Source of the DNA: an uncultured Bacteroidota bacterium
GTDB lineage: Bacteria; Bacteroidota; Ignavibacteria; UBA10030; UBA8401
DNA length: 64,000 bases
Reading direction: 5' to 3'
NCBI GenBank assembly: GCA_963772165.1
Contig: CAVYWA010000011.1
Location: forward strand, 101,909-165,908
Position 1 is the first letter of the stretch. Each line of letters begins with the position of its first letter. A model generated the notes under the pieces. The model was not told the DNA's origin. It made no database searches and saw only the letters and a list, made by a program, of their open reading frames with translations. This document shows positions 2,136 to 48,815 of this stretch, piece by piece. The translations under genes and the position numbers were made by a program.

Positions 2136-2174
2136 GCGAAGTAAGGTGCCGGGTCCGATATTGGGTGCTGGCTC

Positions 2175-5095: not shown

Positions 5096-5310
5096 GGAAG
5101 CCCCTTTTTCAGATTATAGGATATCACGAACTCTGTTTTGCCTTTTCGTGGAGAGGTCATCTCACAAGCGCATTTTGTTCGCCGTAAAACTGCACCAATG
5201 TAGATTCTTTTTGTTTAGAAGGCAAGGATCAGCCTTCCATCTCCCTTCATTTTTTCGTATATTATCACTGCAATTCTCTGATTACTGATTTCTGACATAC
5301 TGTTTATGTT

Positions 5311-8737: not shown

Positions 8738-8741
8738 CAAC

Positions 8742-17211: not shown

Positions 17212-17215
17212 TTCA

Positions 17216-18148: not shown

Positions 18149-18204
18149 AATTCTAGAGATCATCGTTCACTATTTACACCATTTACACTTATAGGAGAAA
18201 TATA

Positions 18205-18462
18205 ATGGAAGCAAATCCAATTGAAGTCGCGAAAGCCGTAGCAACACAGTGGGGATATTTAGCAGCCGGATTCGGCGCCGCCATCACCGTTGTCGGAGCG
18301 GGCCTTGGAATCGGCAAGCTCGCCGCAGCGGCGATGGAAGCCAGCGGCCGTCAGCCGGAAGTTGCCGGCCAGGTCAGAACGTCGATGTTGATTGCAGCAG
18401 CGCTTATTGAAGGAGTCACCTTTTTTGCGCTGGCGATCTGCATTATTCTTGCAACCAAGTAA
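18205..18462 (+). CDS. atpE: F0F1 ATP synthase subunit c
   Basis: 85-aa hairpin proteolipid with G-rich helix 1 (GAGLGIGKLAAAAMEA). SD sequence taggag lies upstream. Confidence 0.9.
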   Translation: MEANPIEVAKAVATQWGYLAAGFGAAITVVGAGLGIGKLAAAAMEASGRQPEVAGQVRTSMLIAAALIEGVTFFALAICIILATK

Positions 18463-18480
18463 AACTCAACAGGGATCGAT

Positions 18481-18966
18481 ATGTTAGACATCAATCCGGG
18501 ACTCATCCTCTGGACGATCATTACCTTTATTCTCCTGCTCTTCATCCTTGGCAAGGTAGCGTGGAAGCCGCTGATGAGCGCTTTACAGGCGCGGGAGCAA
18601 GGCATCCGCGATGCACTCCTCAAGGCTGAAGAAGCGAGAAAGGAATCTGAACGGCTGCTTGCGGAAAACACGATGGCAGTGAAGCGGGCGAACGAAGAAA
18701 CATCGCGCATTCTCAAAGAAGGACGCGACTTAGCCGAACAGATGAAGAATGAAATTGTTGCCAAAGCCCACGAAAGCACAAAAACGATGATGGAAGAGGC
18801 GAAAGAAGATATCCAACGCGAAAAGGAAACAGCACTTCTTCAATTGAAGAACGAAGTTGCCGACCTTGCGGTGAATGCCGCCGAAAAGATCATCGATGAA
18901 ACGCTTGATGAGGCAAAACAAAAAAAACTCGTTGACAAAGTCCTCCAATCGCTCCCGAAGAATTGA
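18481..18966 (+). CDS. atpF: F0F1 ATP synthase subunit b
   Basis: N-terminal TM helix followed by a long charged coiled coil. Position in the operon. Confidence 0.85.
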   Translation: MLDINPGLILWTIITFILLLFILGKVAWKPLMSALQAREQGIRDALLKAEEARKESERLLAENTMAVKRANEETSRILKEGRDLAEQMKNEIVAKAHESTKTMMEEAKEDIQREKETALLQLKNEVADLAVNAAEKIIDETLDEAKQKKLVDKVLQSLPKN

Positions 18967-19520
18967 TGAGTAACCTGAGAGTTGCAAAACGATACGCGTC
19001 CGCTTTGATGGCGTTGACCGGTGAAGCGAAGAAACCCGAGGCAATCGCCGACGACCTGTTGACAGTTCAATCGACGGTCAAGTCGTCCAGAGAGCTCCGT
19101 TCGCTATTGGCAAGCCCCGTTGTTTCAAAGGAAAAGAAAAAGGCCGTGATAGCAGAAATTTTCGGCAAAAAAATCGGCGCGGCGGTGAATCAATATCTTG
19201 CTGCGATCATAGAAAAAAGGCGCGAAGACGTTTTACCCGAAGTGCTCGAACAATATTTTCTCCTTCGGGACGAACAGCTCGGCATCGTTTCGGTTGATGT
19301 CCGTTCGGCAGTAAAGTTTTCTGCAGAGCAGGAAAAATCATTGATACGGCAATTGGAATCGTATACACAAAAGAAAGTCCGTGTCTCGTTCAGCCTCGAC
19401 AAAATTCTCAAGGGAGGCTTCGTTGCAAAAGTTGGGGACACAACACTGGATGGAAGCATCCGTCGCCAGCTTGAGCTTTTACGCTCACGGCTGAAAGACG
19501 GTTCTGTCTCGAAGAATTAA
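18963..19520 (+). CDS. atpH: F0F1 ATP synthase subunit delta
   Basis: Begins [10 protein letters not shown], the OSCP/delta N-terminal signature. Overlaps the atpF stop by 4 nt. Confidence 0.85.
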
Positions 19521-19540
19521 TTTTTTTATCAAACAAGGAT

Positions 19541-21097
19541 ATGACAATGGCGGAAGTACGACCCGATGAGATAACTGCCGTGCTGCGAAAACAGCTCTCC
19601 GGCTTTGAAAAAGAAATCGATATTTATGATGTCGGCACCGTGCTGCAGGTCGGCGACGGCATCGCGCGCTTGTACGGCTTGTCCAAAGTCATGGCGAGCG
19701 AGCTGATTGAGTTTCCAAACGATGTTTTCGGCATGGTGCTGAACCTTGAAGAAGACAACGTCGGTTGTGTCCTCTTCGGCGACGATACGAAAATTAAAGA
19801 AGGCGACACGGTAAAACGAACGAAACGTGTTGCCTCAATGCCGGTCGGCGAGGCCATGCTCGGACGCGTTATCAACCCGCTCGGGCAGCCGCTTGACGGT
19901 CGCGGAACGATCAAGACAGACAAATTTTTACCTCTTGAAAGAAAAGCGCTCGGCGTTATCCAACGCCAGCCGGTGAAGCAGCCGCTCCAGACCGGGTTGA
20001 AAGCTATCGACGGCATGATTCCCATCGGGCGCGGACAGCGAGAGCTGATTATCGGCGACCGCCAAACCGGGAAGACCGCAGTTGCTCTCGACACAATTAT
20101 CAATCAGAAATATACACACTCCGAGAAGGCGAAGAAAGAAGGAGTAAAGCCGGTCTACTGTATCTATGTAGCGATCGGCCAGAAGGGATCGACCGTTGCG
20201 CAGGTGATGACAAAGCTTGAAGAAATGGGAGCGATGGAATATACGGCAATTATTTCCGCGACTGCCAGCGACCCGGCTCCCTTGCAGTTTATTGCTCCGT
20301 ATGCAGGCGCAACGCTCGGCGAATTTTTCCGCGACAGCGCGCGCGATGTACTGGTGGTGTACGATGACTTATCCAAGCATGCGGCGGCGTACCGTGAAGT
20401 ATCGCTGCTGCTGCGGCGCCCGCCCGGACGTGAAGCGTATCCCGGCGACGTGTTCTATCTTCATTCCCGTCTTCTTGAGCGTGCATCAAAGTTGAGCGAC
20501 GAGCTTGGCGGAGGAAGCCTGACGGCGCTTCCAATCATCGAGACGCAGGCGGGTGACGTTGCCGCCTATATTCCGACGAACGTTATCTCGATTACGGACG
20601 GACAGATTTTCCTCGAACCGAATTTGTTTAATTCCGGCGTGCGTCCCGCTATCAACGTCGGCATCTCCGTGTCGCGCGTCGGCGGAAATGCGCAGATCAA
20701 GGCGATGAAAAAAGTTGCCGGGCGCCTTCGCCTGGACCTCGCGCAATACCGTGAGCTGGAAGCGTTCGCGAAATTCGGCTCCGACCTTGATAAGGCGACG
20801 CAGCAGCAGCTGCAGCGCGGTTCGCGGCTTGTCGAAGTGTTGAAACAGAGACAGTACGTGCCGATGCCCGTCGAGAAACAAATCATCATGCTCTATCTCG
20901 GCACATCGGGTTTTCTGGACCAGCTGCCGGTCCACCGGGTGCTGCCGTTCGAGAAAGAGTTTCTTGAAATGGCTGAAACCCGCCACAAGGACCTTCTCGA
21001 CATCATTGCGGAGAAGAAAGAATTGACGGACGATATCACAAAACGCATTCAAACGATTGCGAAAGAATTCATGAATACATTCAGCGTGTCGGCGTAA
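19541..21097 (+). CDS. atpA: F0F1 ATP synthase subunit alpha
   Basis: Walker A GDRQTGKT. 518 aa with the conserved alpha-subunit sequence throughout. Confidence 0.95.
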
Positions 21098-21099
21098 TT

Positions 21100-21996
21100 A
21101 TGGCTACGCTGCGCGACATACGAAGGAGCATTGCAGGCGTCAAGAGCACGCAGAAGATCACCAAGGCGATGAAGATGGTGGCCGCGGCAAAATTGCGCCG
21201 CGCCCAGGAGGCAATTCTTCAGGCGCGGCCGTACGCCCGCAAGATGGCGGAAATGCTGCGCCATCTTTCAGGCAAGGTTGATGCCGCAAAATATCCAGCC
21301 CTGACCCAGCGTCCCGTTGAAAAAGTCGCCATCGTCGTTGTTACCGCCGACCGCGGCTTATGCGGCGCATTTAACACGAACATTTTGCGCGCTGCCGTCA
21401 GCCACATCAACAATAATTATAAGGAGTTGTTCGCGGCGGGAAATGTGAAGCTTTTCTGCATCGGCAGAAAAGGGTTCGACTTTTTCAGCAAACGAAATTA
21501 CGAGATTCTCTCCAAGCAGGTAGGGATTTTCAACTCGCTGAATTTCGGCAATGCCCGGAACATCGTGAAAGAAATTGTGGACGGTTACGCCGCGAAAAAT
21601 TTTGATAAAGTCGTTGTTGTCTACAACGAATTCAAGAACGCCGCCCAGCAGCGGATAGCGATTGAACTCTTTCTGCCTGTTCCCCCCGATCCTGTCGAAA
21701 AAGGCAAAGAGAAGAAACTCCGCTCGCTCGTCGATTACATCTATGAACCGTCGAGCGAAGAGATTATCTCTGCACTCGTTCCGAAACATTTGAATTTTCA
21801 AATGTGGCGCATCCTCCTGGAGTCCAACGCCGCCGAGCAGGGGGCACGCATGACTGCGATGGAGAATGCTTCAACAAACGCGAAAGAAATGATCAGTTCG
21901 CTCGAACTCTCCTACAATAAGGCGCGCCAGGCATCCATCACGAAAGAGCTGCTGGAAATTGTCAGCGGCGCCGAAGCACTGAAAAAAGCAGGCTGA
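21100..21996 (+). CDS. atpG: F0F1 ATP synthase subunit gamma
   Basis: 298 aa. N-terminal MATLRDIRRSIAGVKSTQKITKAMKMVAAAKLRRAQ is the gamma signature. Confidence 0.9.
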   Translation: MATLRDIRRSIAGVKSTQKITKAMKMVAAAKLRRAQEAILQARPYARKMAEMLRHLSGKVDAAKYPALTQRPVEKVAIVVVTADRGLCGAFNTNILRAAVSHINNNYKELFAAGNVKLFCIGRKGFDFFSKRNYEILSKQVGIFNSLNFGNARNIVKEIVDGYAAKNFDKVVVVYNEFKNAAQQRIAIELFLPVPPDPVEKGKEKKLRSLVDYIYEPSSEEIISALVPKHLNFQMWRILLESNAAEQGARMTAMENASTNAKEMISSLELSYNKARQASITKELLEIVSGAEALKKAG

Positions 21997-22098
21997 GGTT
22001 AATTAAGAATTATGAATTAAGAATTGGAGGCGAATTGCCTCATTTTTTTAATCTCTAATTCCTAATTCCTAATTTTTAATTCATAATTCTTCATTGCT
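21997..22098. repeat. AT-rich palindromic element with (TAATTCC)3-like heptad tract; likely atp-operon terminator and/or ffh leader
   Basis: aattaagaattatgaattaagaatt ... aatttttaattcataattctt form a long inverted repeat. The tract ctaattcctaattcctaattttt recurs at 60700-60735 and 61958-61990. Confidence 0.55.
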
Positions 22099-23421
22099 GT
22101 GTTTGATACCCTTACTCAAAAATTAGATTCTGTTCTCAAGCGGCTTCGCGGAGAAGGAAGAATTTCCGAAGCGAACATTGCGGAGATGCTGCGCGAAGTT
22201 CGCAAGGTCTTGCTCGATGCGGACGTCAACTATAAAGTCGTAAAGCAGTTCATCGACAACGTCCAGCAGAAGTCGCTTGGCAAAGAAGTTGTCACGAGCA
22301 TCGCGCCCGGCCAGCTCATCGTGAAAATAATCCACGATGAACTGGTTGTGTTGTTGGGGACCGCGAAAGCCGACATCGTGATCTCGCAGACGCCGCCGTC
22401 GGTTATCCTGATTGCAGGACTGCAGGGATCGGGGAAAACGACTTTCGCTGGAAAGCTGGCAAATTTATTGAAGTCGAAGGGCCGCAGCCCGCTTCTCGTT
22501 GCGGCGGATGTCTACCGTCCTGCGGCGATCGACCAGTTGATCATGCTCGGCGGGCAGATTGAAGTTCCCGTTTTCTCCAGCAGGACGGACACGGCGATCG
22601 ACATTGCGAAGAACAGCATTGAGCACGCGCGAAAGAATGCACGGGACACCGTGATCATCGATACGGCAGGCCGCTTGCATGTGGATGAAGAAATGATGCG
22701 TGAGGTTGAGAGCATCAAGTCATCCGTCCAGCCCCATGAAATATTGTTCGTCGTGGATGCGATGACGGGACAGGATGCGGTCAACACGGCAAAGGCGTTT
22801 CACGACCGCCTCAATTTTGACGGCGTCGTTCTTACAAAACTCGACGGCGATACGCGCGGTGGTGCCGCCCTCTCTATCCGCTCGATCGTCGAGAAACCGA
22901 TCAAGTTTGTCGGAACCGGTGAAAAGCTCGACGCCCTTGAGCAGTTCCATCCCGACCGCATGGCGTCGAGGATTCTCGGCATGGGGGATATCGTTACGCT
23001 TGTTGAGAAAGCCCAGCAGACGTTCGACAAGGACAAGGCACAGCAGCTTGAACAAAAAATACGAAAGTCGCAATTTACGCTCGAAGATTTTTACAGCCAG
23101 CTCCAGGAAATCAAAAAAATGGGTCCGTTGAGCCAGGTGCTGTCGATGATTCCCGGAGCGAACAAGCTCGGCAACGTGAACGATGTTGACGAAAAAGAGA
23201 TGAAATATGTTGAGGCCATGATCCTGTCGATGACGATTGAAGAACGGCAGCACCCCGCGATCATCAACGGATCGCGGCGAAAGCGCATTGCCACAGGGAG
23301 CGGAAGATCCGTGCAGGAAGTGAACAAGCTTCTCAAGCAGTTTTTCGAGATGCAAAAAATGATGAAGAATTTTACAAAAGGAAAGAATGTCGGGCGCATG
23401 ATGGCGCAGCGTTTCCACTGA
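22099..23421 (+). CDS. ffh: signal recognition particle protein Ffh
   Basis: NG domain with GLQGSGKTT. M-domain methionine-rich C-terminus. GTG start. Confidence 0.95.
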   Translation: MFDTLTQKLDSVLKRLRGEGRISEANIAEMLREVRKVLLDADVNYKVVKQFIDNVQQKSLGKEVVTSIAPGQLIVKIIHDELVVLLGTAKADIVISQTPPSVILIAGLQGSGKTTFAGKLANLLKSKGRSPLLVAADVYRPAAIDQLIMLGGQIEVPVFSSRTDTAIDIAKNSIEHARKNARDTVIIDTAGRLHVDEEMMREVESIKSSVQPHEILFVVDAMTGQDAVNTAKAFHDRLNFDGVVLTKLDGDTRGGAALSIRSIVEKPIKFVGTGEKLDALEQFHPDRMASRILGMGDIVTLVEKAQQTFDKDKAQQLEQKIRKSQFTLEDFYSQLQEIKKMGPLSQVLSMIPGANKLGNVNDVDEKEMKYVEAMILSMTIEERQHPAIINGSRRKRIATGSGRSVQEVNKLLKQFFEMQKMMKNFTKGKNVGRMMAQRFH

Positions 23422-37106: not shown

Positions 37107-37180
37107 TTGATTGTCGCCCTTCAAATAGCTATATTTCCCTATCTCTCACTGTTTCAAATACTTACGCAAAAAGCTGAGCG

Positions 37181-38173
37181 ATGACTTTTTCCGAGGACAG
37201 GCTGAAAGAACTCCTAGCAAAGTTTAAAAATAAGCGCATCGCAGTCGTGGGCGATGTCATGCTGGACAAATACCTTTGGGGAACTGTCGGTCGTATTTCT
37301 CCCGAAGCCCCCGTCCCCATTGTTGAAGTTGAAAAAGAAACCGAGCGGCTTGGCGGTGCTGCAAATGTCGCAAATAATGTCAAATCCCTTGGGGGATGGC
37401 CGCTGTTGGTGGGGGTTGTCGGCGACGACTCGAACGGCACCCTGCTGACAAAACTTCTTGCTGAGCAAGGTTGTCCAATAAACGGGATTGTTAAGGATGC
37501 GTCGAGGCCCACGACAATAAAAACACGTGTCATTGCCCATAGCCAGCATGTCGTTCGAATAGACAATGAACAGAAACGCGATATTTTGCCTGCGGTGCAG
37601 GATCAGATCCTTGCGGTACTCCGGGCTACTATTGACACTCTGGATGGCATTATCCTCGAGGACTACAACAAGGGAGTTATCGCCACATCGTTGATACATC
37701 AGATTATTGAGATAGCTCGTGAGCATGAAAAAATTGTGACCGTAGATCCCAAGTTCCAGAATTTCTTCGAGTATAAGAATGCTACGGTATTCAAACCGAA
37801 CAAAAAAGAAGTTGAAGAGGCGTTGGGAGTTAAGCTCACTTCCGAGGAGAGCGTGCGTGAGGCAATAGAATTATTGAAGAAAAAACTGCACGCAGATAAT
37901 ATCCTCATTACGCTCGGCGAAAACGGGATGAGTTTGTTGGACAACCAGGGTTCGTTGCTGCATTTACCGACCCGGGCGCGGCATGTTGCCGATGTATCGG
38001 GTGCCGGCGACACAGTGATTGCCACACTCACTATGGCACTGGCGTCTGGCGCGTCAATTCACGAATCGGCGAGCCTTGCCAATTTTGCCGGCGGTGTCGT
38101 GTGCGGCGAAGTTGGTATCGTTCCCATTATGCCGGATGCATTGCTCTCAAGGGTTCTTTCCTACCATTCGTAA
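37181..38173 (+). CDS. D-glycero-beta-D-manno-heptose-7-phosphate kinase (RfaE/HldE domain I, PfkB family)
   Basis: PfkB ribokinase-like fold with C-terminal DVSGAGDT motif. N-terminal KRIAVVGDVMLDKYLWG is typical of HldE domain I. Confidence 0.8.
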   Translation: MTFSEDRLKELLAKFKNKRIAVVGDVMLDKYLWGTVGRISPEAPVPIVEVEKETERLGGAANVANNVKSLGGWPLLVGVVGDDSNGTLLTKLLAEQGCPINGIVKDASRPTTIKTRVIAHSQHVVRIDNEQKRDILPAVQDQILAVLRATIDTLDGIILEDYNKGVIATSLIHQIIEIAREHEKIVTVDPKFQNFFEYKNATVFKPNKKEVEEALGVKLTSEESVREAIELLKKKLHADNILITLGENGMSLLDNQGSLLHLPTRARHVADVSGAGDTVIATLTMALASGASIHESASLANFAGGVVCGEVGIVPIMPDALLSRVLSYHS

Positions 38174-38200
38174 CGCTCGAAACAAATTTTCGGGATCACC

Positions 38201-38692
38201 ATGGGAAAAGTTTTCTCTCTCGCAGAATTAATTGAGGTGCGTCATCGTTGGAAGGTAAGCCGAAAGAAAGTTGTTTTTACCAACGGTGTCTTCGATATCT
38301 TGCACCGCGGACACGTGGAGTACCTCGCTGCGGCAAAATCTCTGGGCGATGAACTGATCGTAGGAATAAACAGCGATGCTTCCGTGAAAAAGATTAAGGG
38401 CCCTCGCCGCCCCGTCGTTGTGGAAGGTGACCGGGCGTTCCTTGTCTCCCAGCTGGTCCCCGTTGACGCCGTCTGCATCTTCGACCAGGAGACACCGTAT
38501 GATATCATCAGCGCCCTTATACCGGACATTCTTGTTAAAGGCGCCGACTGGAAGGTCGATGATGTTGTAGGAAAAGATATCGTCGAGCATTCCGGAGGAA
38601 AAGTTCTCACACTCCCGTTTGTCCCCAGACACTCGACGACGTTGGTCATCGAAAAAATTAAAGAGTTGTACGCCGGTCAAGAAAAAGAATAG
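38201..38692 (+). CDS. D-beta-D-heptose-1-phosphate adenylyltransferase (RfaE/HldE domain II, cytidylyltransferase fold)
   Basis: VVFTNGVFDILHRGHVEYL (HxGH nucleotidyltransferase motif). 163 aa. Confidence 0.8.
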   Translation: MGKVFSLAELIEVRHRWKVSRKKVVFTNGVFDILHRGHVEYLAAAKSLGDELIVGINSDASVKKIKGPRRPVVVEGDRAFLVSQLVPVDAVCIFDQETPYDIISALIPDILVKGADWKVDDVVGKDIVEHSGGKVLTLPFVPRHSTTLVIEKIKELYAGQEKE

Positions 38693-41600
38693 ATGCTCCG
38701 CAAAATTTCGAAAATATTGGCATACATCTGTCTTTCCGCTTTGGCGGTTCTGTTTGCGACGATGGGATTTACTCAGACGATATTGACATATGTCTGCCTT
38801 TCGGCATTGGTCGTTCTCTTTGCGGCGATGGGCTTTTCCCGGAAAACGCTGACGTATGTTTGTCTCTCCATAGTCGTCGTTCTGTTTGCGGCGATGGGCT
38901 TTTCTCAGACGACGCTTTTCAGGCAGACGCTTCGGGCGACGATCTATAAAATAGTGGATGCAAACCTTAATGCGTCGGTGTTTATCGGCGAAATCAAAGG
39001 AAATCTTTTCACCGGCATTTCTATTGACACAATCGCGATTTACGTCAACAACGCGCCGTTTCTTGAAGCAGGCAGGACTGTTGTTCGCTACGACCCGCTT
39101 CCCCTCTGGAATAAAAATATTGCGCTCGGAAGCATTGAAATTGAACACCCGTCCGTTTCGATTATCCGGTTTGCCGACGGAACGTGGAATGTCGACCGGC
39201 TCGCAAAAAAGAAATCGGAACCGGATTCTCTTCCGTCGCCGTGGGTTGTTGCGGTAAAAAACCTGCGTATCAACAACGGGCATTTTCGGTTGATCGACTC
39301 GACCGCTCAATCCAACCATGATCTCCCGGATTCAATCGCCGGGCGGACGTTCAATTTTTCCAACCTTGACATCGAAAAGCTCAATGTTGAACTCTCGGCG
39401 ACATTTTCGGAACAGCAGCAAAGTGCATCTATTAAAAATATTTCCTTCGTGACTTCCCGCGAGGGCTTTACCCTTACACATTTTTCCGGCGATCTCCGGC
39501 ATACGGCCGCGAACTCTGAAGTCAAAAACCTTCTCATTGTCACCCCCCGCTCACGCATTGAATTCTCGGCGAAAATCTCTTCCGTGGATGCGCTCAAAAT
39601 TCATGACATCGCAGCGCTCCAATTTACTCCGGTAGAGTGTTCCCTGTCGCCGAGCACTGTCGCCGCAGAAGACCTGCAGCGATTCCTGCCTTCGCTCAAT
39701 TTTCTTCGAGGCTCGGTTCAATTGGAATGCAGGACGGAAGGCGAATTTGGCAATCTGAAGGTGAAAAGACTCCATGCCGGCTTCAACCGTTCAATCATCA
39801 ATCTCGACGGGAGCGTCACCAATCTTCATCATCCTGACGACCTGACGTTAAACATTGAATCGAAAGGAACCACGATCCATCCTTCCGACGTTCCCCAGCT
39901 TCTCCCTTTTTTCCACATTCCGGACTTTGGAAATGCAGGGGAGCTCGGTCTCGACTTTCATTATGTCGGCAAGCCGCTTAATTTTCAGGTCACAGCGAAT
40001 GCTTCGATGGCAGCGGGAAACGTTTCGGTGAACGGAGGGTTGGACCTCACCGGCACAACAATGAGGTACAAGGCGGCGTTCGGCGGGACCGGAGTAAATC
40101 TCGGAAAAATCCTTTCGGCCCCGTCACTTCGTTCCAATCTGGATTTCTCCGGGACGATAGAGGGGGAAGGGACATCGATTGAAGAACTGAATTCTAAAGC
40201 TTCACTTATTATCGACTCATCATCGTTTAACGATATCCCCCTTTCCCATCTCCGGACAGAAATCATCGCTGCGGATAAAAAAATTTCGTGTTCCGCAAAA
40301 CTTCAATTTCCCAAAGGGGATGTCGCCCTGCAGTCGGCGTTGGAGTACAACTCCGCCGGGGCGCCTTCGTACTCATTCGACGGGACATTTTCTCATTTTG
40401 ATTTTGCGGCGATCTTTCATGATGATCATTATGCGTCGGACTGCTCCTTCTCGTTGAGTGCAAGCGGAAACGATTTTCTGCGTGAAGACATGAGCGGCAA
40501 CTTGCGTGTCGGGTTTTCAAATTCTCGGTTTGAAACATACACTTTTGACAGTGCCCGGGCGGAGCTCCACGTTGGCGTCGACTCTTCGGGAAGTAAAACG
40601 ATTGGTCTCGTCTCGCCAATCGCCGATGTATCGATGACGGGCAACTTTACGTATGCCGGCGTTATCGACATGTTGAAATCGCATATTGCGGGGTTTCGAC
40701 GGGCTTACTATAAACAGCGCGCTATCTTTGACTCTTCATTTGTCGATGCGGCGGGGAGTGTGAACGCCGATGAAGATACAACGGCCGGCAGCTCACCATC
40801 TCCACAAAATACTATTCAATATTCAGTCCATGTAAGGAATTTAGAACCGGTGGCTATCTTTTTTGGGATGAATATTTTTAATGCGGTCGGCGACATTGAA
40901 GGGTCGATCCACGGCAACGCTGATACACTTTCCGCTGAAGGCTCAGTCTCAATCATGTCGGCAAAATACTCGTTGAACAATGATGGCTACGTTGTTGTTG
41001 AAAAAGGGTTGGTGGAGTACAGTGTTCAGAATATGGCGCGCGACAACCTTCTTGCCGCTGCAAACAGCCCAACGGTGCAAATCCGCGCAAGCGGGGCCAA
41101 TGTTTTCACGGGTGAGTCCTATTTCCGGAACGCGTCGGTTGAGTTCAGCCTTCATGATCGGCATGCCGAATACTCGGTGCAATGCGAGGTTGACAGCACC
41201 ATCAAGCTCGGTATCGAAGGCCGGGCACATGTAACTCCCGATGAATACGAACTGACTTTTGATACGTTTTCTTTCAGTTATCAAGGGTACGAACTCGATA
41301 ATGCCCGGCAATTCTCGGCTCGATTGAGCGGATCCGGTATTTCCGTTGACTCGACGGCATTTATCCATCAGGATGAAAAGCTCATCTTCGGCGGCTCTAT
41401 CGGCTATGGCGGTGAGATTGCTGCCTTTGTCCGCCTGCAGGATTTCGCACTGTCAAATATTTACCATTTTGGCAAGTCTCAAAACTTCAAGTCAAACGCC
41501 ATCGCATTTGGCGGCACGGTGAACGCCAGCGGCCTGCTGAGAGGAACGATGCATGATCCGGTGCTCACCTGTGAACTTGGGATTACAGATTTTGCCTACC

Positions 41601-43372
41601 GCGGAGTGGCGTTTGGGTTTGTGAACAGCTCGATCCACTACGAAAACAAAGTTGCTGATTGCACTGTCCAACTTTCCAAAACACCCGAGTCGCATGATAA
41701 TTTTGAACTTCTTTGCAGCGGCTCCATTCCGATGGACCTTGCGTTTGCGTCTGTCGATAACCGCTTTTCTCTTGCCGGCATGGACATGTATGTGAAAGCG
41801 CAAAATTTTGATATCAGCGTCCTTGACCCTTTCATCGAACAGCTCGATGAAATGGAAGGGACGATGGAGGGTTCCATTCATTGTACCGGGTCGCTGGAAT
41901 CCCCGCTGTTCGATGGAGGCATGGAATTGCGGGATGCAAAGTTTTTGTTTCCGATGAACAATATGAAATACCGGGTCGACGGAAAGATTGATTTTCAGGG
42001 CAATAAGGTATCCTTCTCAACCTTCGTTGCGAAAAATTTGACTGAAAATTATTCTACCGGCAAAATCGATTTCAGCGGCTACATTACGCTTCGCGGGTTC
42101 GTTCCGGATGAATATCATTTACGGGCAAAGGGCGAATTAAAAGTACTTCAGGAAGCGTCGCGAAAAAACGACCAGGGAGTCTACGGGGATTTGATTGCTT
42201 CCACGGGAGACGAGGGGCTGTCGTTTGATGGAACTGCCGCCAGCTCGCGCGTGACGGGAGCCATGTATATCAAACAGGCCTCGCTCACATTCCCGTCGAC
42301 ACGCGAATCGGCAAATCTTGTTTCGGCACGGTATGTTAATGTCGTCAGTGTCGACGATACTTCAAAGGCAGTTCCGGACTCTCTTCTCGGCTCGCGCCTT
42401 TTTGCTTTTTTAGGTTCGAAGAAAGAAGCGCGAACTTCGAACGATCCTTCGTTTCTGGACGGACTCGGATACAATTTAACGATCCAGACACAGGGAATCG
42501 TGCAAATACGGATGATCTTCAATGCGGCCACGAATGAAGAGTTGTTTGCAGATTTGAATGGAAAGCTGGAATTGAGTAAAGAGAAGAACGATGTTCGGCT
42601 CACGGGAACGATCAACGTATCGGATAAATCTAATTACAAATTCTATAAACAATTCGATGCATCGGGTACATTGAAGTTCACGGGGAAACCCGATAATCCG
42701 GAATTGGATATTACCGCCTCCTACACCGGAAGCCACTTGAAGCCGGAAACGGCAGGGCAGAAGGAAACAACGGTTCCGGCAACAGAAAAAGTTGTGGTTT
42801 CGCTCGCAATCAGCGGCACGCGGTACGACCCAAAGATAAAAATCGGCCTCTCGACTTTTGACGACAACAACAATGAAACAGTGCGTACCGGCGACGTCGA
42901 ATCCGACGCTATTTCATTTCTTCTGACATCGACGCCGGGGAGCCCGGGAAAGTTCCGCGACGATTTGACTTCAAACGATAAACAAGGCATCGCAAGTTCG
43001 CTGGGAGGGTCAATCGGTGGATCATTAGTCTCCGGTTTCACCAACACACTTCTTTCGGGAATGATGCAGGATTTTTTACGTGCGAATAACTTTACCGCAC
43101 TGAGCAATGTCGAGATTCTCTATTCGGGCACATCGCCGGACTTGCGTTTGAGCGGCGTTGTCGGCAATGCGTACTGGACATTTGGAGGAAAAGTATTCAA
43201 CGATATCAACAACGCCAACGTCAGCGTGCAATGGTCGCTTGGTTCAATCATTCAGGACGATAACCTGCGTAATTTTATGTTCGAAGTCGATCGGAAAAGC
43301 GACCCGATGGAAACAATTGATTTACGCCGCCCGACAAACGGCGCACGCGTATACTATAAATTTGCTTTTTAG
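38693..43372 (+). CDS. TamB/AsmA-like giant envelope protein (translocation and assembly module subunit B-like), 1559 aa
   Basis: N-terminal membrane anchor(s) followed by a very long predicted beta-rich periplasm-spanning domain. The gene sits immediately after the LPS-heptose genes. Confidence 0.6.
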   Translation: MLRKISKILAYICLSALAVLFATMGFTQTILTYVCLSALVVLFAAMGFSRKTLTYVCLSIVVVLFAAMGFSQTTLFRQTLRATIYKIVDANLNASVFIGEIKGNLFTGISIDTIAIYVNNAPFLEAGRTVVRYDPLPLWNKNIALGSIEIEHPSVSIIRFADGTWNVDRLAKKKSEPDSLPSPWVVAVKNLRINNGHFRLIDSTAQSNHDLPDSIAGRTFNFSNLDIEKLNVELSATFSEQQQSASIKNISFVTSREGFTLTHFSGDLRHTAANSEVKNLLIVTPRSRIEFSAKISSVDALKIHDIAALQFTPVECSLSPSTVAAEDLQRFLPSLNFLRGSVQLECRTEGEFGNLKVKRLHAGFNRSIINLDGSVTNLHHPDDLTLNIESKGTTIHPSDVPQLLPFFHIPDFGNAGELGLDFHYVGKPLNFQVTANASMAAGNVSVNGGLDLTGTTMRYKAAFGGTGVNLGKILSAPSLRSNLDFSGTIEGEGTSIEELNSKASLIIDSSSFNDIPLSHLRTEIIAADKKISCSAKLQFPKGDVALQSALEYNSAGAPSYSFDGTFSHFDFAAIFHDDHYASDCSFSLSASGNDFLREDMSGNLRVGFSNSRFETYTFDSARAELHVGVDSSGSKTIGLVSPIADVSMTGNFTYAGVIDMLKSHIAGFRRAYYKQRAIFDSSFVDAAGSVNADEDTTAGSSPSPQNTIQYSVHVRNLEPVAIFFGMNIFNAVGDIEGSIHGNADTLSAEGSVSIMSAKYSLNNDGYVVVEKGLVEYSVQNMARDNLLAAANSPTVQIRASGANVFTGESYFRNASVEFSLHDRHAEYSVQCEVDSTIKLGIEGRAHVTPDEYELTFDTFSFSYQGYELDNARQFSARLSGSGISVDSTAFIHQDEKLIFGGSIGYGGEIAAFVRLQDFALSNIYHFGKSQNFKSNAIAFGGTVNASGLLRGTMHDPVLTCELGITDFAYRGVAFGFVNSSIHYENKVADCTVQLSKTPESHDNFELLCSGSIPMDLAFASVDNRFSLAGMDMYVKAQNFDISVLDPFIEQLDEMEGTMEGSIHCTGSLESPLFDGGMELRDAKFLFPMNNMKYRVDGKIDFQGNKVSFSTFVAKNLTENYSTGKIDFSGYITLRGFVPDEYHLRAKGELKVLQEASRKNDQGVYGDLIASTGDEGLSFDGTAASSRVTGAMYIKQASLTFPSTRESANLVSARYVNVVSVDDTSKAVPDSLLGSRLFAFLGSKKEARTSNDPSFLDGLGYNLTIQTQGIVQIRMIFNAATNEELFADLNGKLELSKEKNDVRLTGTINVSDKSNYKFYKQFDASGTLKFTGKPDNPELDITASYTGSHLKPETAGQKETTVPATEKVVVSLAISGTRYDPKIKIGLSTFDDNNNETVRTGDVESDAISFLLTSTPGSPGKFRDDLTSNDKQGIASSLGGSIGGSLVSGFTNTLLSGMMQDFLRANNFTALSNVEILYSGTSPDLRLSGVVGNAYWTFGGKVFNDINNANVSVQWSLGSIIQDDNLRNFMFEVDRKSDPMETIDLRRPTNGARVYYKFAF
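38723..38920 (+). repeat. 66-bp imperfect tandem repeat x3 inside the 5' end of the TamB-like gene (three consecutive TM-anchor copies)
   Basis: Encodes YICLSALAVLFATMGFTQTILT / YVCLSALVVLFAAMGFSRKTLT / YVCLSIVVVLFAAMGFSQTTLF. Confidence 0.75.
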
Positions 43373-43393
43373 CCCAAGGGGATAGAGGGAATC

Positions 43394-45565
43394 ATGAAAA
43401 ATAATTTAGAACAGCGCGTCGTCGATTTTTTTGACGCACATCCGCGCGAGGCGTTCAAATCGCGCCAGGTGGCACGGCGGTTAAGCATACGGGATGAAAA
43501 AGAATTCCAGGCGTTGAGGGAAGTGCTTCATACCATGGTGGATCGGAAAGTTTTATCTCATGCCAGGGGCAAGGGGTATTCTCGCAAATCGCTGGAGAAG
43601 GGGATGAAGGGTATACTTTCGATGAGCAAACAGGGCTACGGGTACGTCACCGTTCCGGGCTCGGAATTCGGGGATGTATACATCGGTCCGAAATCACTCG
43701 GTACGGCTCTCGATGGTGATACGGTTGAAGTGACGCCGTTTGCTTCCCACCGCCAAAACAAGGGAGGTGAAAAGGGGACCGAAGGTGAAATTGTCGGGGT
43801 CGTGTCGCGCGCTCATGATGAATTTGTCGGAACGCTTGCACAAAGCAAGAATTTCTTTTTTGTCGTCATTGATGACCGAAAGATTCCGCGTGATATCTAT
43901 GTACCGCACGAAGCGCTGAACGGGGCGCAGCCCGGGGATAAAGTCGTCGTTGCGTTTGAATCGTGGGACAATGAGCTGCTGAACCCGGAAGGGAAAATTA
44001 TTGAAATTATCGGTCGCTCGGGCGACTCGAGTGCGGAGGTCGCATCGGTCATTAAAGCGTTCCGTCTCCCGACATCGTTCCCGCGCGACGTCGAATCCTA
44101 CGTCAAAAACATTCCCGAAACAATTTCTCCGGAAGAAATCAAGCTCCGGCGGGACCTGCGCCCGCTCCCCTGCGTGACCATCGATCCCGATGACGCGAAG
44201 GACTTTGACGATGCTGTCTCACTCGAGATGCTTGACGGCACGACATTCAGGCTTGGAGTTCATATCGCCGATGTGAGCGCGTACGTCAAAGAAGGAACGG
44301 TGCTCGACACCGAGGCGTTCAACAGGGGAACCAGTGTTTATCTCGCGAATCAAGTTGTGCCGATGCTGCCGGAGAAACTTTCCAACGACCTCTGCAGCCT
44401 TAAACCCAACGTCGACCGGCTTGCCTATTCCTGCATCATGGATATCACGGAAAAAGGGAAGATTAAAAATTATGAAATTGTTCGGAGCGTCATCAACTCA
44501 AAACGGCGGTTCACCTATGAGGAAGTGGAGCGTGTTCTCGACACAGGAAAAGGCGATCACGCGGAGTCATTGGCGAAGCTCTGGTCGCTCGCACGTCTCC
44601 TGAAAGAGAAACGGATGAAAAACGGAAGCATCGATTTCGATTCACCCGAAGCCAAGTTCCGGTACGACGAACACGGCAAGCCGGTAGAAGTCCGGATCAA
44701 AAATCGATTGAAAAGCCATCAATTGGTGGAAGAATGTATGCTGCTCGCTAATCAAACGGTCGCTTCGCACATCGGCAAACAAAAAAAGGAAGTTGATGTT
44801 CAGCCGTTCGTCTACCGCATTCATGATTCTCCGGACAGCGAAAAAATACGGGAATTATCGATTTTTGTTGAAAAGTTTGGTTACAAATTAAACGTTAGTG
44901 CTTCTGTTTCGTCAAAAGATTTGCAGAAACTGCTGAACGAAGTGAAAGGCACCCCGGAAGAAAATGTCATCAACACAGTTTCGCTCCGTGCAATGGCAAA
45001 AGCGGTTTACTCGGAAAAAAATATCGGACACTTCGGCCTGGCGTTCGACTATTACACGCATTTCACATCCCCTATCCGCCGTTACCCTGACCTGGTCGTG
45101 CACAGAATGCTTGATGAATATGCGAAAGGGATGTCTCATGCGCGCCGGAAACATTTCATCGATGTGCTTCCGCATGTCTGCAAATGGTCCTCTGACCGGG
45201 AACGGGTTGCTATGGAAGCCGAACGCGCCTCGGTGAAGGTGATGCAGGCAGAGTATATGAAACAGCACCTCGGCGACGAATTCGCCGGAGTGATTTCGGG
45301 CGTAACAAACTACGGGATGTATGTTGAGATCAATGATTTGCTCGTCGAGGGAATGATTCATGTCCGCAACATCGGAGATGATTATTACGAGCATGATGAA
45401 AAGCACTATTCACTCGTTGGCAGACGCACCGGGCGGACGTTCCGTCTCGGGGACAGTATTGCCGTGAAAGTGATAAAGGTGAATGTTGAGAACAGAGAAA
45501 TTGATTTCGCATGCATAGAGCCGGAGCCGCCATCACAGGCGAAAAAGAGGCGGAAGAATAGGTAG
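43394..45565 (+). CDS. rnr: ribonuclease R
   Basis: Cold-shock/OB N-region, RNB catalytic domain (DFDDAVS...GTSVYL), C-terminal S1 domain, basic tail. 723 aa. Confidence 0.9.
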   Translation: MKNNLEQRVVDFFDAHPREAFKSRQVARRLSIRDEKEFQALREVLHTMVDRKVLSHARGKGYSRKSLEKGMKGILSMSKQGYGYVTVPGSEFGDVYIGPKSLGTALDGDTVEVTPFASHRQNKGGEKGTEGEIVGVVSRAHDEFVGTLAQSKNFFFVVIDDRKIPRDIYVPHEALNGAQPGDKVVVAFESWDNELLNPEGKIIEIIGRSGDSSAEVASVIKAFRLPTSFPRDVESYVKNIPETISPEEIKLRRDLRPLPCVTIDPDDAKDFDDAVSLEMLDGTTFRLGVHIADVSAYVKEGTVLDTEAFNRGTSVYLANQVVPMLPEKLSNDLCSLKPNVDRLAYSCIMDITEKGKIKNYEIVRSVINSKRRFTYEEVERVLDTGKGDHAESLAKLWSLARLLKEKRMKNGSIDFDSPEAKFRYDEHGKPVEVRIKNRLKSHQLVEECMLLANQTVASHIGKQKKEVDVQPFVYRIHDSPDSEKIRELSIFVEKFGYKLNVSASVSSKDLQKLLNEVKGTPEENVINTVSLRAMAKAVYSEKNIGHFGLAFDYYTHFTSPIRRYPDLVVHRMLDEYAKGMSHARRKHFIDVLPHVCKWSSDRERVAMEAERASVKVMQAEYMKQHLGDEFAGVISGVTNYGMYVEINDLLVEGMIHVRNIGDDYYEHDEKHYSLVGRRTGRTFRLGDSIAVKVIKVNVENREIDFACIEPEPPSQAKKRRKNR

Positions 45566-45657
45566 GAATTTTCTTTCGGCGTGCTTCGTTGTAATAAGTG
45601 ATACAGAGCGTTTATTGTAAGAGCAAAATAGCTTTCCCCATACTCATTGAGGATTCC

Positions 45658-48600
45658 ATGAGAATGCGCCTTTTGATGATCGGGTTTTTATTGACTGCCG
45701 GAGTGTTCTCCTCGGTAGCCCAGGAGGCTGTTTTCGGCAAGAACAAAGTGAAGTACAAAAAATTTGAGTGGTGGTACATTCAAACAAACCATTTCGACAT
45801 TTATTTCAGCGACAACGGAGAATACCTTGCGAACTTTACCGCAGCCGCCGCTGAATCCGCCTACACCCTTATCAGCAAAAGTTTCCGCTACGAGATCAAT
45901 AATCGTATTCCGATTATGGTCTACAACTCGCACAACGATTTTCAGCAGACGAATGTTTTATCGGAATACATGGAAGAAGGAATCGGCGGTGTCACGGAAC
46001 TCTTCAAGAACAGAATGGTGGTCCCGTTCGAGGGTAATTACAAGATGTTCCGTCATGTCATTCACCATGAACTCGTCCACGCCGTTTTCAACGATATGTT
46101 CTACGGCGGTTCGATACAATCCATCATCTCCAATAACATCCGCCTCCAGCTGCCGATGTGGTTCAACGAAGGGATGGCGGAGTATCAATCGCTGCATTGG
46201 GATACAAACTCGGACATGTTCATGCGTGATGCGACGATTCATACCTATCTTCCCCCCATCGACTATCTCAGCGGTTACTTTGCCTATCGCGGGGGCCAAT
46301 CGGTTTGGTATTATATTGCAAATAAGTACGGCGATCAGAAAATTTCAGAAATTTTGAATCGGATCAAGGGGTCGCGCAGCATAGAGCAGGGATTTAAAAA
46401 TGCCCTCGGATTGAGCATCTCTGAATTAAACGAGCGATGGCAGAAAGAGCAGAAAGTGCTGTACTGGCCCGACATTGCGAAGCGTGAAGACCCGGCGGAT
46501 TTTGCGACGCGCCTCACGAACCACGTGAAAGAATCTGATTTTTATAATACCAGCCCATCGATTTCCCCTCAGGGCGACAAAGTCGCATTTATTTCCGACC
46601 GCGATGATTATTTCGACGTGTATATCATGTCCACGATCGACAATAAAATAACGAAGATCGTCGACGGACAGCGGACCAAAAATTTTGAAGAACTGCACCT
46701 GCTGACGCCGGGCATTACCTGGTCTCCCGACGGAAAGAAGATCGCCCTGGCCGTGAAGAGCGGGGAGAGCGATGCAATATTTATTGTTGATGCCGTCACC
46801 GGTGACCAGGAGAAAATTCAATTTCAACTGGAAGGGATCTTTTCCGTCGACTGGTCGCCCAAAGGGGACAAGCTCGCGTTTGTCGGAGACGACGCGAAAC
46901 AGTCGGATATTTATCTCTATGACTTGAAAACGAAAAACCTGACGAATCTCACCGACGATATTTTTTCAGATTCCGACCCGCACTGGGCACCCGATGGAAA
47001 GACGATCTACTTTGTTTCGGACAGGAAAGACAATCTCGACCGTAATGCCGTCTCCCCGAATTTCAAAATGGCAAAGTATGATTTTTCCGAATCGGATATT
47101 TATTCGTTGAACGTTGAGACTTTGGAGATGAAGCGTATCGTTGATTATGACGGCAGCGATGCAACATCGCCGGTGCATATCGCCGGACGGGAAAAAAATG
47201 CTCTACGTCTCCGACCGGAACGGCATCGGGAATATTTATGAGCGCAATCTTGTTACCGGCGCGGACCGCCCCATTACCAATTCGCATTACCGGAGTGTTC
47301 CAGCTCTCATTGTCGGCGGATGGAAACAAACTTTCGTTTGCGGCGCTGAATGAAGCGGGCTTCGACATCTATCTTATGAAAGCGCCCTTCGACAAAAAAT
47401 TAGCGGTGTCCGAACTTGAGCCGACGGAATACTTAAAACGCAGAATGCGATTGGCGCAGAAAACGACCACGGCGCCCGGCGTCCAGGGAACAAAGGACTC
47501 GTCGAGTGTGGCGGCTAACGTTCCCGCAAAAGACACGGCGGGTGTCTACGGCGATCGTGTGCACATCGATTTTCAAAACTATGTTTTCTCTGATGAACAG
47601 CCCAAAGAGAAACCGCCGTCCCCCGAGGCGGAAACCGTGGGAAAACAAATAGAACCGAGCGACAATGTCGACGAACAGGGCAACTATAAAGTCAACAAGT
47701 ACAAGCTCAATTTTTCGCCCGATATCATTTACGGCAACGCCGGCTACAGTACCTTCTACGGAGTGGAAGGAACGACAGAAATGGCGTTCAGCGACATGCT
47801 CGGAAACCATCAAATCTATTTTCTCACGAACTTGATGCTGGATTTGGAGAACAGCGACTATGTCATGGCGTACAATTATTTGGCGACGAAAATTGACTAT
47901 GGGATTGAAGGATTTCACAGCGCGCGGTTTTTGTACCTGTACGACCAGACGGGCAATGTTTCGTTGTATCGTTTTCAAACATGGGGCATCGGATTGTCGG
48001 CGTCGTATCCGCTGGATAGATTCAATCGGTTCGATTTCAGTCTGGCCTGGCTGAACCTTTCCAGGCAAAATCTCGACGACCCGACATTGGATGAACCTAC
48101 GGACGAACGAAACCTCGTGATGCCTTCGATAAGTTATATCCACGACACATCGCTGTGGGGTATCACTGCCCCGAACAACGGGACGCGCTATAATTTTACC
48201 GTTATGTTCAGCCCTGCGCTTACCGCAGGCGACCATTCCCTTGATTTTCAGACCTATACGCTCGATTATCGAACGTATGAAAAATTCTGGAGGGACTATT
48301 CGTTCGTCATTCGCTGGGCGGGGGGCGTGAGTGAGGGCAGAAATGCACAAAGATTTTTTATCGGCGGGACGGACGGATGGATTAACCGTGAATTTGCCAA
48401 CGGTGGAATCCCGATTAACAATGTTGAGGACTACGCCTTCTTATCGCCTGCGCTTCCGATGCGCGGCTTTGACTACAACGACAAGAACGGCACAAAGTAC
48501 GCATTGATGAACTACGAACTGCGTTTTCCGCTCATCCGCTATCTTGTGACCGGCGGCTTGCCCATTGCGGCCCAAAATATTACGGGCGCGATGTTTGTCG

Positions 48601-48815
48601 ATATCGGTTCGTCGTGGACGGAGGACAAAGCGTATAGGTTCTTTACAAAGGACGATGATGGTAACTATACGGCAGAAGATTTGCTCATGGGGACGGGGTT
48701 TGGCGTGCGGATAATTTTGTTCGGGTTACCGCTAAAATTTGATGTGGCATGGGCATATAATGGGGAAGCTTTTTCTATCCCCGTATACTATATTTCGCTT
48801 GGGGGGGATTTCTAG
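45658..48815 (+). CDS. large outer-membrane protein: signal peptide + HExxH domain + PD40/TolB-like beta-propeller repeats + C-terminal Omp85/BamA-like beta-barrel; interrupted by two +1 frameshifts (about 47175 and 47285)
   Basis: HHELVH motif. Repeated SPDG/APDG/SPKGD-K--A(F)-SDR propeller units. The C-terminus carries MRGF...ELRFPL...GAMFVDIGSSW...GFGVRIILFGLPLKFDVAWAY... and ends with F. The three ORF pieces (45598-47241, 47141-47353, 47238-48815) are contiguous in sequence. Confidence 0.65.

Follow-up and report, generated by a model that had tools for sequence, protein, structure and literature searches.

Two extra bases interrupt a conserved WD40-Omp85-type gene in the assembly of an uncultured Bacteroidota bacterium

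The WD40-Omp85 ('WD40-like') subfamily of the Omp85/TpsB superfamily, named by Heinz and Lithgow (2014, Front Microbiol 5:370; PMC4104836), has a purely bioinformatic definition, and any function ascribed to it is predicted. The best hits reported for members of the subfamily (Table S3 of that study; PMC4104836) are TolB (2ivz/2w8b), the BamA or TamA barrels 4k3b/4c00, and the aminopeptidases 1z5h (M1-type), 4kxd, and 4fgm; UniProt D0MEQ5, D0MCT8, B3QRX6, and H1XQ58 are among the entries of that table. Here, we describe a computational analysis of a gene of this type carried on a 64,000-nucleotide stretch of DNA (the window) from an uncultured Bacteroidota bacterium. As in the WD40-Omp85 proteins, a TolB-like propeller replaces POTRA ahead of an Omp85 barrel, and an aminopeptidase-like region lies in front. 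No structural difference from the family was found, and the window copy differs only by two extra bases. We present evidence that the gene is conserved and intact in related genomes, and we weigh whether the interruptions belong to the organism or to its assembled sequence.

Domain architecture of the encoded protein

A sequence-only reading of the locus had described a fusion of a signal peptide, an HExxH metalloprotease-like domain, PD40 repeats, and a C-terminal Omp85-like barrel. This domain content was borne out by matches to Pfam peptidase and PD40 models and, for the propeller and barrel, by structure prediction and Foldseek, and all of the motifs that had been listed (HHELVH, WSPDGKKIALAV, WAPDGKTIYFVSDR, ISPDGKKMLYVSDRNG, LSADGNKLSF, and the C-terminal F) are present (Table 1). 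Domain folds were modelled with AF2 on a full-length orthologue (P0001, 92% identity) and compared by Foldseek. The predicted signal peptide coincides with a modelled helix at residues 2-22. The Peptidase_MA_2 domain was matched in 40/40 homologues, among which H137, E138, H141, E171, and E175 are invariant, and an HExxH motif occurs within the first 320 residues in 76 of the 81 long distant representatives of the barrel subfamily. The propeller and barrel of the AF2 model are usable, but that of the peptidase domain is poor (pLDDT 25-50 over residues 71-213), the alignment for it being too shallow.

A sequence-profile search of the PDB returned TolB-type propellers only, with no barrel match and no peptidase structure at E<=0.01. 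The propeller matched PDB TolB at E 1e-15 by sequence and at E 1e-13 by fold (TM to target ~0.53). The predicted linker that follows overlaps a stretch of pLDDT below 50 (residues 599-703), and Pfam scans of the window protein and the 40 homologues found no POTRA family. The modelled barrel consists of about 16 long strands over residues 685-1046 (pLDDT 65-90), and its Foldseek matches include TamA 4c00 (E 4.6e-13), the barrel-only TamA structures 4n74 and 8us4 (TM to target 0.71 and 0.73), and BamA barrels (0.60-0.64). Within its loop-6 motif R935 and G936 are invariant in the 40 homologues, and the C-terminal residue is aromatic in 75/81 long representatives. The Omp85 model PF01103 gave no match to the window protein at E<=0.1 and matched 8/40 close homologues (best 9.6e-14); NCBIfam matches at residues 937-1050 are weak (TamL 5e-5, TamA 1e-3).

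The fusion had also been described as uncommon. This was wrong, since a database search at E<=1e-10 gave more than 6,495 matching proteins, and among the best 120 most are full length at ~1030-1090 aa. The combination of peptidase, propeller, and barrel is a common architecture that is already known, not a new one.

Table 1. Coordinates of features at the WD40-Omp85-type locus and of further frameshifts in the window
Feature	Position	Strand	Remarks
ORF 1 as given	45598..47241	+	frame 1
ORF 2 as given	47141..47353	+	frame 2
ORF 3 as given	47238..48815	+	frame 0; barrel ORF, without signal peptide
Whole WD40-Omp85-type gene	45658..48815	+	1051 codons, stop, and 2 extra bases
Sec-type signal peptide (predicted), MRMRLLMIGFLLTAGVFSSVAQ	45658..45723	+	residues 1-22; basic n-region, hydrophobic core, VAQ|E
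Peptidase_MA_2 domain	45892..46446	+	residues 79-263; PF13485 48.8 bits, cut-off 32.4
HELVH	46066..46080	+	residues 137-141, in Peptidase_MA_2
NEGMAEY	46165..46185	+	residues 170-176, in Peptidase_MA_2
Six-bladed TolB-like PD40 beta-propeller	46543..47381	+	residues 296-574; PD40 81 bits; AF2 strand pattern
Disordered linker (predicted), ~110 residues	47382..47711	+	residues 575-684; poorly conserved, consensus mostly 'x'
Omp85-type beta-barrel, ~16 strands	47712..48812	+	residues 685-1051; C-terminal Phe
Loop-6 motif MRGF inside LPMRGFDY	48453..48476	+	MRGF = residues 934-937
Extra base 1, C47176	47176..47176	+	between codons 506/507; frame 1 to 2
Extra base 2, C47285 or A47286 (indistinguishable)	47285..47286	+	between codons 542/543; frame 2 to 0
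ABC-F ATPase frameshift	near 5482		rebuilt protein against NF000355: 472 bits, cut-off 380
RlmD frameshift	near 7657		rebuilt protein against TIGR00479: 380 bits, single stretch 17-464 over junction
Small outer-membrane protein frameshift	near 8957		G6 run

Two extra bases within a single gene

As assembled, the locus is covered by three + strand ORFs that overlap one another, and these form a single gene read in frames 1, 2, and 0 in turn. When a single base is dropped at both of the break sites, an ORF of 1051 aa results, and the best homologue (P0001) is exactly as long. This agrees with the earlier proposal that two +1 shifts divide one gene of ~1050 aa. The start of the gene (MRMR...) agrees with that of the orthologues. 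The extra bases were located by alignment to seven orthologous DNA sequences that are 81-86% identical to the window. At the first site, 7/7 orthologues have a gap (GTG-ATATC versus GTGCATATC in the window), and the additional base is a window-only singleton in a 5-way alignment; at the second, the window reads TCGCATTACC and the orthologues TCGA-TCACG or TCGC-TGACC. The approximate intervals first proposed for the frame changes (47171-47185 and 47275-47295) are narrowed here to one or two candidate bases each. The two bases lie 109 nt apart at the edges of propeller blade 5, and no further stops or indels were found in the remaining ~3.1 kb of the gene.

The orthologues are single genes rather than three separate ones. 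Leaving out loci that carry a frameshift of their own, 22/22 other orthologous loci have an uninterrupted ORF across both sites, with the consensus SPVISPDG..MLYVSDRNGIGNIYERNL.TGADRP.TNS[IL][TS]G. In a scan of genome contigs the nearest relatives share 85-86% DNA identity with the window, and in JGI metagenome contigs, where the best match has 93% amino acid identity, every match is intact. The association of the gene with tamB and the RNase R gene is clade-limited, because a more distant locus (L009, 55% identity) has neither within 10 kb.

Selection on the gene was assessed by counting substitutions along the window lineage. In the part of the gene that follows the breaks there are 147 synonymous and 34 nonsynonymous changes, and the corresponding counts for intact orthologues range from 124/49 to 185/46; the gene is still under purifying selection in this region. 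Over the whole gene the counts are 192/29, as against 225/62 for the neighbouring TamB and 104/23 for RNase R, and constraint is as good as or better than that on these two genes. Such a test of relaxed selection would hardly register an inactivation that happened very recently.

Each site carries a short direct repeat with copies 13 nt apart, as had been pointed out (ATCGCCGG at 47166 and 47179; CATTACC at 47272 and 47285). The repeats are real, but they are not a lesion or a footprint: each consists of codons that recur at a distance of 12 nt (SP..SP within T-S-P-V-I-S-P, IT..IT within P-I-T-N-S-I-T), to which the inserted base adds one. In one orthologue (L001) two copies of TCGCCGG stand 12 nt from each other in the reading frame, and no frameshift is present. 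A 13-nt insertion, footprint, or bypass was also considered and rejected; deleting 13 nt at each site restores the frame (1043 aa) but removes V-I-S-P and N-S-[IL]-T, which are present in all orthologues. Short repeats of this kind are rare, with 197 window positions having a 7-mer repeated within 20 nt. No flanking short direct repeats were found at the three other frameshift sites in the window, so that they are not a general feature of its frameshifts.

Origin of the frame changes

The sequence-only reading had left the choice between a recently inactivated pseudogene and local indel errors. We infer that each of the frame changes reflects the erroneous insertion of a single base during consensus or assembly; this is the most likely cause, and we hold it with considerable confidence. 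The organism would then carry an intact, conserved, single gene of 1051 codons, and both insertions would have arisen in the assembled consensus, probably in an error-prone assembly of the long-read metagenome type whose consensus is locally poor. An origin in error is favoured because the orthologues are intact, the 1051-aa length is restored, further +1 shifts are present and clustered, two related loci show a comparable pattern, and constraint is unrelaxed.

The clustering is seen within the window itself, where unrelated genes encoding an ABC-F ATPase, RlmD, and a small outer-membrane protein account for at least three further +1 frameshifts (Table 1). The five events, which break four genes, are all +1; three of them fall in a stretch of 3.5 kb and the other two in one of 110 nt. 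By a rough estimate, two hits in 110 nt would have a chance of about 3% if five errors fell independently and at random in 64 kb; such closeness is somewhat unlikely for independent errors and counts against that explanation. Other frame changes suspected from the frame plot (rimM/trmD, rplS, the atp operon, and 55.5-58.3 kb) are ordinary gene boundaries. The closest relative (L007, contig_16584 of an MFD MAG) has ~10 singleton 1-nt insertions and 0 1-nt deletions in 23 kb, at sites other than those of the window and with two of them 7 nt apart; in another related locus (L028, contig_13517) the gene calls split TamB into 3 pieces and RNase R into 5. These contig names are of a long-read style, and judged from such naming and from the Microflora Danica project the source of the window was presumably long-read data. 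That both sites in the gene studied here lie between rare short repeats could point to a local mutational mechanism, an observation that runs against an origin in error.

It is improbable, although deserving of some weight, that the gene is a genuine and very recent pseudogene, in which case two real insertions would have struck blade 5 and the other broken genes might be real as well, as in a genome that accumulates pseudogenes. The sequence as given consists of three ORFs, of which that encoding the barrel lacks a signal peptide, and within the 24 kb of the window that can be compared to orthologues this gene is the sole broken one; two close lesions would be expected if the second hit came after inactivation. 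Against this, the constraint downstream of the breaks resembles that of intact orthologues, the rest of the gene has accumulated no other lesion, and the 22 other orthologous loci free of a frameshift of their own are intact. Moreover, housekeeping-type genes (ABC-F and RlmD) carry insertions of the same +1 type, and the insertion-only pattern in L007, together with the gene splitting in L028, suggests a technical cause.

Programmed recoding, whether by two +1 ribosomal frameshifts, hops between the 13-nt repeats, transcriptional slippage, or phase variation, is highly implausible: the repeats superficially resemble take-off and landing sites and all window frameshifts run in the same direction, but both shifts are absent from all 22 other orthologous loci that carry no frameshift of their own, the frameshifts of L007 are located elsewhere, the other three frameshift sites lack flanking repeats, a hop of 13 nt would cost four conserved residues at a site (DATSPDGKK and RPITGVF replacing SPVISPDG and TNS[IL]TG), GTG-CAT-ATC and TCG-CAT-TAC offer no slippery or stop-codon context, and neither site has a homopolymer or simple repeat, so that slippage and phase variation have no substrate. 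Equally hard to credit is the notion that the insertions are real here, in the other broken window genes, and in the related MAGs, and that the cell copes with them through +1 recoding or correction at the RNA level; if this were true, full-length proteins would be made from frameshifted genes in an uncultured Bacteroidota/Ignavibacteria-like lineage.

With error as the preferred explanation, the main value of the locus lies in quality control. Residual single-base insertions appear to persist in the assembly, at least five in 64 kb and clustered, and the apparent pseudogenes and 'split' genes of the window need read support before they are interpreted biologically. Two over-readings are also corrected, one taking the 13-nt repeats for a mutational footprint and the other taking the domain fusion for a rarity.

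Proposed topology and comparison with known systems

In the intact form, the protein is predicted to be exported by Sec, after which the C-terminal 16-strand barrel would insert in the outer membrane and, by means of the disordered linker of ~110 residues, tether the propeller and a putative zinc peptidase of clan MA (HExxH...E). By analogy with BamA and TamA, whose N-terminal domains sit in the periplasm, we infer that the peptidase and propeller face that compartment. In tricorn and the S9/DPP-IV peptidases, propellers capture or gate the substrates of the peptidase, and the propeller of the window protein may likewise capture or gate polypeptide substrates. The protein would thus be an outer-membrane-anchored envelope protease, its activity and substrates being predicted from domain content. 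A TamB/AsmA-like protein is encoded two genes upstream, and, much more speculatively, the WD40-Omp85 protein could serve as its partner in the outer membrane.

Two topologies were raised by Heinz and Lithgow for Omp85 proteins with enzymatic N-termini (PMC4104836), and the same two arise here. Besides the periplasmic placement, the peptidase and propeller could, though we think it unlikely, be a passenger exported through or by the barrel to the cell surface in a type Vd-like manner, as for PlpD, and serve as an extracellular nutrient protease. The order of N-terminal enzyme, linker, and C-terminal Omp85 barrel resembles that of the patatin-Omp85 protein PlpD, and the long disordered linker could thread the pore. 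PlpD, however, has a POTRA domain, which is absent between the N-terminal domains and the barrel of the window protein; the closest structural matches are TamA and BamA barrels, which have periplasmic N-terminal domains; and no characterised TolB-like propeller is known to lie outside the periplasm. The family, in which a peptidase of clan MA and a TolB-like propeller are joined to an Omp85 barrel lacking POTRA, is abundant and conserved, and its function is predicted. It would be a reasonable target for envelope biology, an interest that is independent of the window.

The window protein shares with TamA and BamA the 16-strand fold (Foldseek E ~1e-13 to 1e-11), an xRG[FY] motif in loop 6, and an aromatic residue at the C-terminus. 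It differs from them in having a peptidase and propeller at the N-terminus in place of POTRA, and it scores 17.7 bits for TamA and 21.9 bits for TamL against NCBIfam cut-offs of 625 and 400. With TolB it has in common a six-bladed PD40 propeller (TIGR02800, 158.8 bits), yet this score is below the equivalog cut-off (343.15 bits), only the propeller matches (stretches 354-458 and 354-545), and the propeller, unlike that of TolB, forms part of a fusion with a peptidase and an outer-membrane barrel. Database names such as 'biopolymer transporter Tol' are over-annotations. The coupling of propeller and peptidase has an analogue in tricorn and S9/DPP-IV, with matches to Pfam Tricorn_N/Tricorn_2nd and DPPIV_N, and BepA, the BAM-associated M48 protein, is an envelope zinc protease at the outer membrane that offers a functional analogy only. 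The serine peptidases tricorn and S9/DPP-IV and the M48 peptidase BepA differ in catalytic class and family from the clan-MA family PF13485, and a further difference is that the window protein is predicted to be covalently anchored by a barrel of its own.

Reading frame and extra bases

As the sequence stands, the WD40-Omp85-type gene is divided among three overlapping ORFs (45598-48815, forward strand), each of which translates to a recognisable part of the protein. This confirms the sequence-only reading, in which a single gene had been split by two +1 frameshifts. Deletion of either one base or 13 nt at each site yields a single frame, of 1051 or 1043 aa, respectively; the homologues decide in favour of the one-base repair, and the 13-nt insertion model was rejected because it would remove conserved residues. 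The best database homologue, P0001, is exactly 1051 aa long and 92% identical, and reads ...SDASSPVISPDGTKMLYVSDRNGIGNIYERNLVTGADRPVTNSLTGVFQLSLSADG... across the region. When aligned as DNA with seven orthologous loci, to which it is 81-86% identical in nucleotides, the window has exactly one base too many at each site, and the two bases border propeller blade 5 (codons 506/507 and 542/543). Among 23 orthologous loci from genomes and metagenomes (55-94% protein identity), all 22 that lack a frameshift of their own carry one unbroken ORF through both sites, and the orthologues are thus single genes rather than three; the 23rd, L007, has its frameshift at a different place, near 47811 of the window. 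The proteins of the window itself have no database entry, and no sequences closer than 93% amino acid or 86% nucleotide identity were found in genomes or metagenomes.

The direct repeats that had been described at the shift sites, 13 nt apart, do exist (ATCGCCGG at 47166 and 47179; CATTACC at 47272 and 47285), and they represent the same codons used twice for the repeated peptides T-S-P-V-I-S-P and P-I-T-N-S-I-T. Their spacing without the inserted base is 12 nt, the 13 nt being 12 plus the extra base, and the orthologue L001 carries TCGCCGG twice, 12 nt apart and in frame, without a frameshift. Both extra bases fall between repeat copies (47166..47292). Such repeats are rare, a 7-mer being repeated within 20 nt at 197 positions in the window, and no flanking short direct repeats were found at its three other frameshift sites. 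The repeats may have promoted consensus errors here, or their presence may be coincidence.

Features of the gene, its corrected protein, its neighbourhood and the other frameshifted genes
Feature	Position	Strand	Remarks
ORF 1	45598..47241	+	frame 1; signal peptide, HHELVH, PD40-type repeats
ORF 2	47141..47353	+	frame 2; 70 aa, reads ISPDGKKMLYVSDRNGIGNIYERNLVTGADRPITNS
ORF 3	47238..48815	+	frame 0; LSLSADGNKLSF, then long beta-rich C-terminus, last residue F
Extra base 1	C47176	+	GTG[C]ATATCG; alignment with seven orthologous loci
Extra base 2	C47285 or equally A47286	+	TCG[C]ATTACC; same alignment
Signal peptide, Sec-type	residues 1-22	+	corrected protein
Peptidase_MA_2 domain	residues 79-263	+	Pfam 48.8 bits, cut-off 32.4
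PD40 propeller	residues 296-574	+	six-bladed
Linker	residues 575-684	+	poorly conserved, predicted disordered
C-terminal barrel	residues 685-1051	+	Omp85 loop-6 motif MRGF 934-937, terminal Phe
PfkB-like kinase, then cytidylyltransferase-like protein	block 37178..48815	+	
TamB/AsmA-like protein	38693..43372	+	1559 aa
RNase R	43394..45565	+	
WD40-Omp85 gene	45658..48815	+	
Amino-acid permease	after WD40-Omp85 gene	-	opposite strand
ABC-F family ATPase	5311..7318	+	frame 1 to 2, shift near 5476-5483 (~5482), context GGTACCAGTG
23S rRNA m5U methyltransferase RlmD/RumA	7318..8737	+	+1 shift near 7651-7660 (~7657), context ATCCCGTGTCC
Small putative outer-membrane protein	9462..8742	-	+1 shift at G6 run near 8955-8960 (~8957; C on + strand); signal peptide, beta-rich
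F-type ATP synthase operon	16801..23421	+	apparently intact; small membrane protein, then atpB..atpH, atpA, atpG

Consensus error or genuine mutation

The two extra bases are probably consensus or assembly insertion errors, for which the evidence is indirect and consists of further frameshifts in the window, a like signature in related assemblies and an intact substitution pattern. A codon-usage frame plot of the window, followed by inspection, revealed three further +1 frameshifts, in the ABC-F ATPase, RlmD and small outer-membrane protein genes. Together with the two described above, this makes five or more events in 64 kb. All are +1, they affect four unrelated genes, and they are clustered: three lie inside a 3.5-kb stretch and two inside 110 nt. 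The ABC-F protein rebuilt by removing one base (668 aa) reaches 472 bits with the NCBIfam model NF000355, whose cut-off is 380, in a match that spans the junction, and its shift is probably another consensus insertion. Rebuilt RlmD (472 aa) matches NCBIfam TIGR00479 with 380 bits in one stretch, 17-464, across the junction; the rebuilt small outer-membrane protein matched no family. Frame changes near the ATP synthase operon were rejected as frameshifts and are normal gene boundaries.

In a five-way alignment of 23 kb shared by the window, L007, L008, L001 and L003, the coding sequence of the closest relative, L007 (MFD05379.bin.2.14, contig_16584), contains about ten singleton insertions of one base (window-equivalent positions 36257, 40950, 42879, 42886, 44107, 45536, 47811, 51665 and 53613) and zero one-base deletions. 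The insertion sites differ from those of the window, and two are only 7 nt apart; such insertions are essentially absent from L008, L001 and L003. In the related contig L028 (contig_13517, 2081..8875), TamB is called as three genes and RNase R as five. Judging by the style of the contig names and by the MFD (Microflora Danica) labels, these are presumably long-read assemblies; public proteins predicted from such MAGs will be fragmented.

Codon changes in the window lineage number 192 synonymous and 29 nonsynonymous over the whole gene, and 225/62 and 104/23 in the neighbouring TamB and RNase R genes. These counts give no sign of decay, although very recent inactivation could escape the test. 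Several observations count against error: the gene is the sole broken one in the 24 kb of the window comparable with orthologues, errors arising independently at two sites 109 nt apart would be somewhat improbable (~3% on a simple rough estimate), and both sites lie between short repeats that the window rarely has. The closeness of the sites and their flanking repeats are, however, equally compatible with real mutation and with a consensus of poor local quality. A genuine, recent pseudogene with real single-base insertions is an improbable alternative, against which stand the changes downstream of the breaks (147/34), within the range of intact orthologues (124/49 to 185/46). Programmed frameshifting or bypassing at two sites is effectively excluded, since the shifts are not conserved among orthologous loci, the contexts are not slippery and bypassing would lose conserved residues. 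Most probably, the frame breaks were introduced by assembly into a member of a known and abundant gene family, an ordinary explanation.

Architecture, family and possible role

The metalloprotease-like domain of the sequence-only reading was recovered by Pfam (Peptidase_MA_2), whereas for its Omp85-like barrel the corrected protein did not reach the threshold of the Pfam Omp85 model, which 8 of 40 close homologues match (best 9.6e-14). HELVH (137-141) and NEGMAEY (170-176) hold residues invariant across 40 homologues, and R and G of the loop-6 motif are invariant. An AlphaFold2 model of P0001 reached a mean pLDDT of 64.7, with good propeller and barrel regions and a poor peptidase domain. Its structural matches are TolB (E about 1e-13), TamA (4c00, E 4.6e-13) and BamA barrels; the TM to target is 0.71 and 0.73 for 4n74 and 8us4, which are barrel-only structures of TamA.

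The domain fusion had been called uncommon; it is neither uncommon nor new, because homologues are abundant and the cluster is already published. The first protein search returned at least 6,495 proteins at E<=1e-10, of which the best 120 are mostly of full length, at about 1030-1090 aa, with a small number of shorter ones (905-966 aa), and come from Bacteroidota and Ignavibacteriales-type MAGs. When the barrel alone was searched against 50%-identity cluster representatives (188 matches, E<=1e-30), 81 of the best 150 were at least 900 aa long, 76 of these 81 with HExxH near the N-terminus; the remaining shorter ones look like fragments. The database names are vague and inconsistent ('biopolymer transporter Tol', 'PD40 domain-containing protein', 'DPP IV N-terminal domain-containing protein', 'BamA/TamA family outer membrane protein', 'peptidase MA family metallohydrolase'). 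Each covers at most a part of the architecture, and the score stays below the equivalog cut-off for TolB. A 'WD40-Omp85' cluster was defined by Heinz and Lithgow in 2014 (PMC4104836), whose Table S3 gives its members TolB, BamA/TamA and M1-aminopeptidase structural matches, and a later paper counts it among known Omp85 subfamilies. In the literature searched, the name 'WD40-Omp85' occurs in just two papers, whose passages on it describe no functional experiment.

The order from PfkB to WD40-Omp85 is kept down to homologues of about 59% identity, most with the permease, and is absent around L009, a 55% homologue. The proximity of a TamB-like gene to one for an Omp85 protein brings TamA-TamB to mind; a functional link is only a lead, because the order is lost in L009, and the arrangement may be merely inherited synteny.

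BamA and TamA have their N-terminal domains in the periplasm; on this analogy, the peptidase and propeller would be held by the barrel at the periplasmic side of the outer membrane. Export of these domains to the cell surface, as in PlpD, is one of two topologies raised for enzymatic Omp85 fusions by Heinz and Lithgow (PMC4104836). This topology is the less likely one, since Pfam scans of the protein and 40 homologues showed no POTRA domain and the structures that the protein matches best are barrels of the insertase type. With the domains on the periplasmic side, the propeller would retain substrates or control their access to the zinc peptidase, much as propellers serve the peptidase in tricorn and S9-type enzymes. 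The protein has the barrel fold of BamA and TamA and differs from them in its N-terminus, where they carry POTRA domains.
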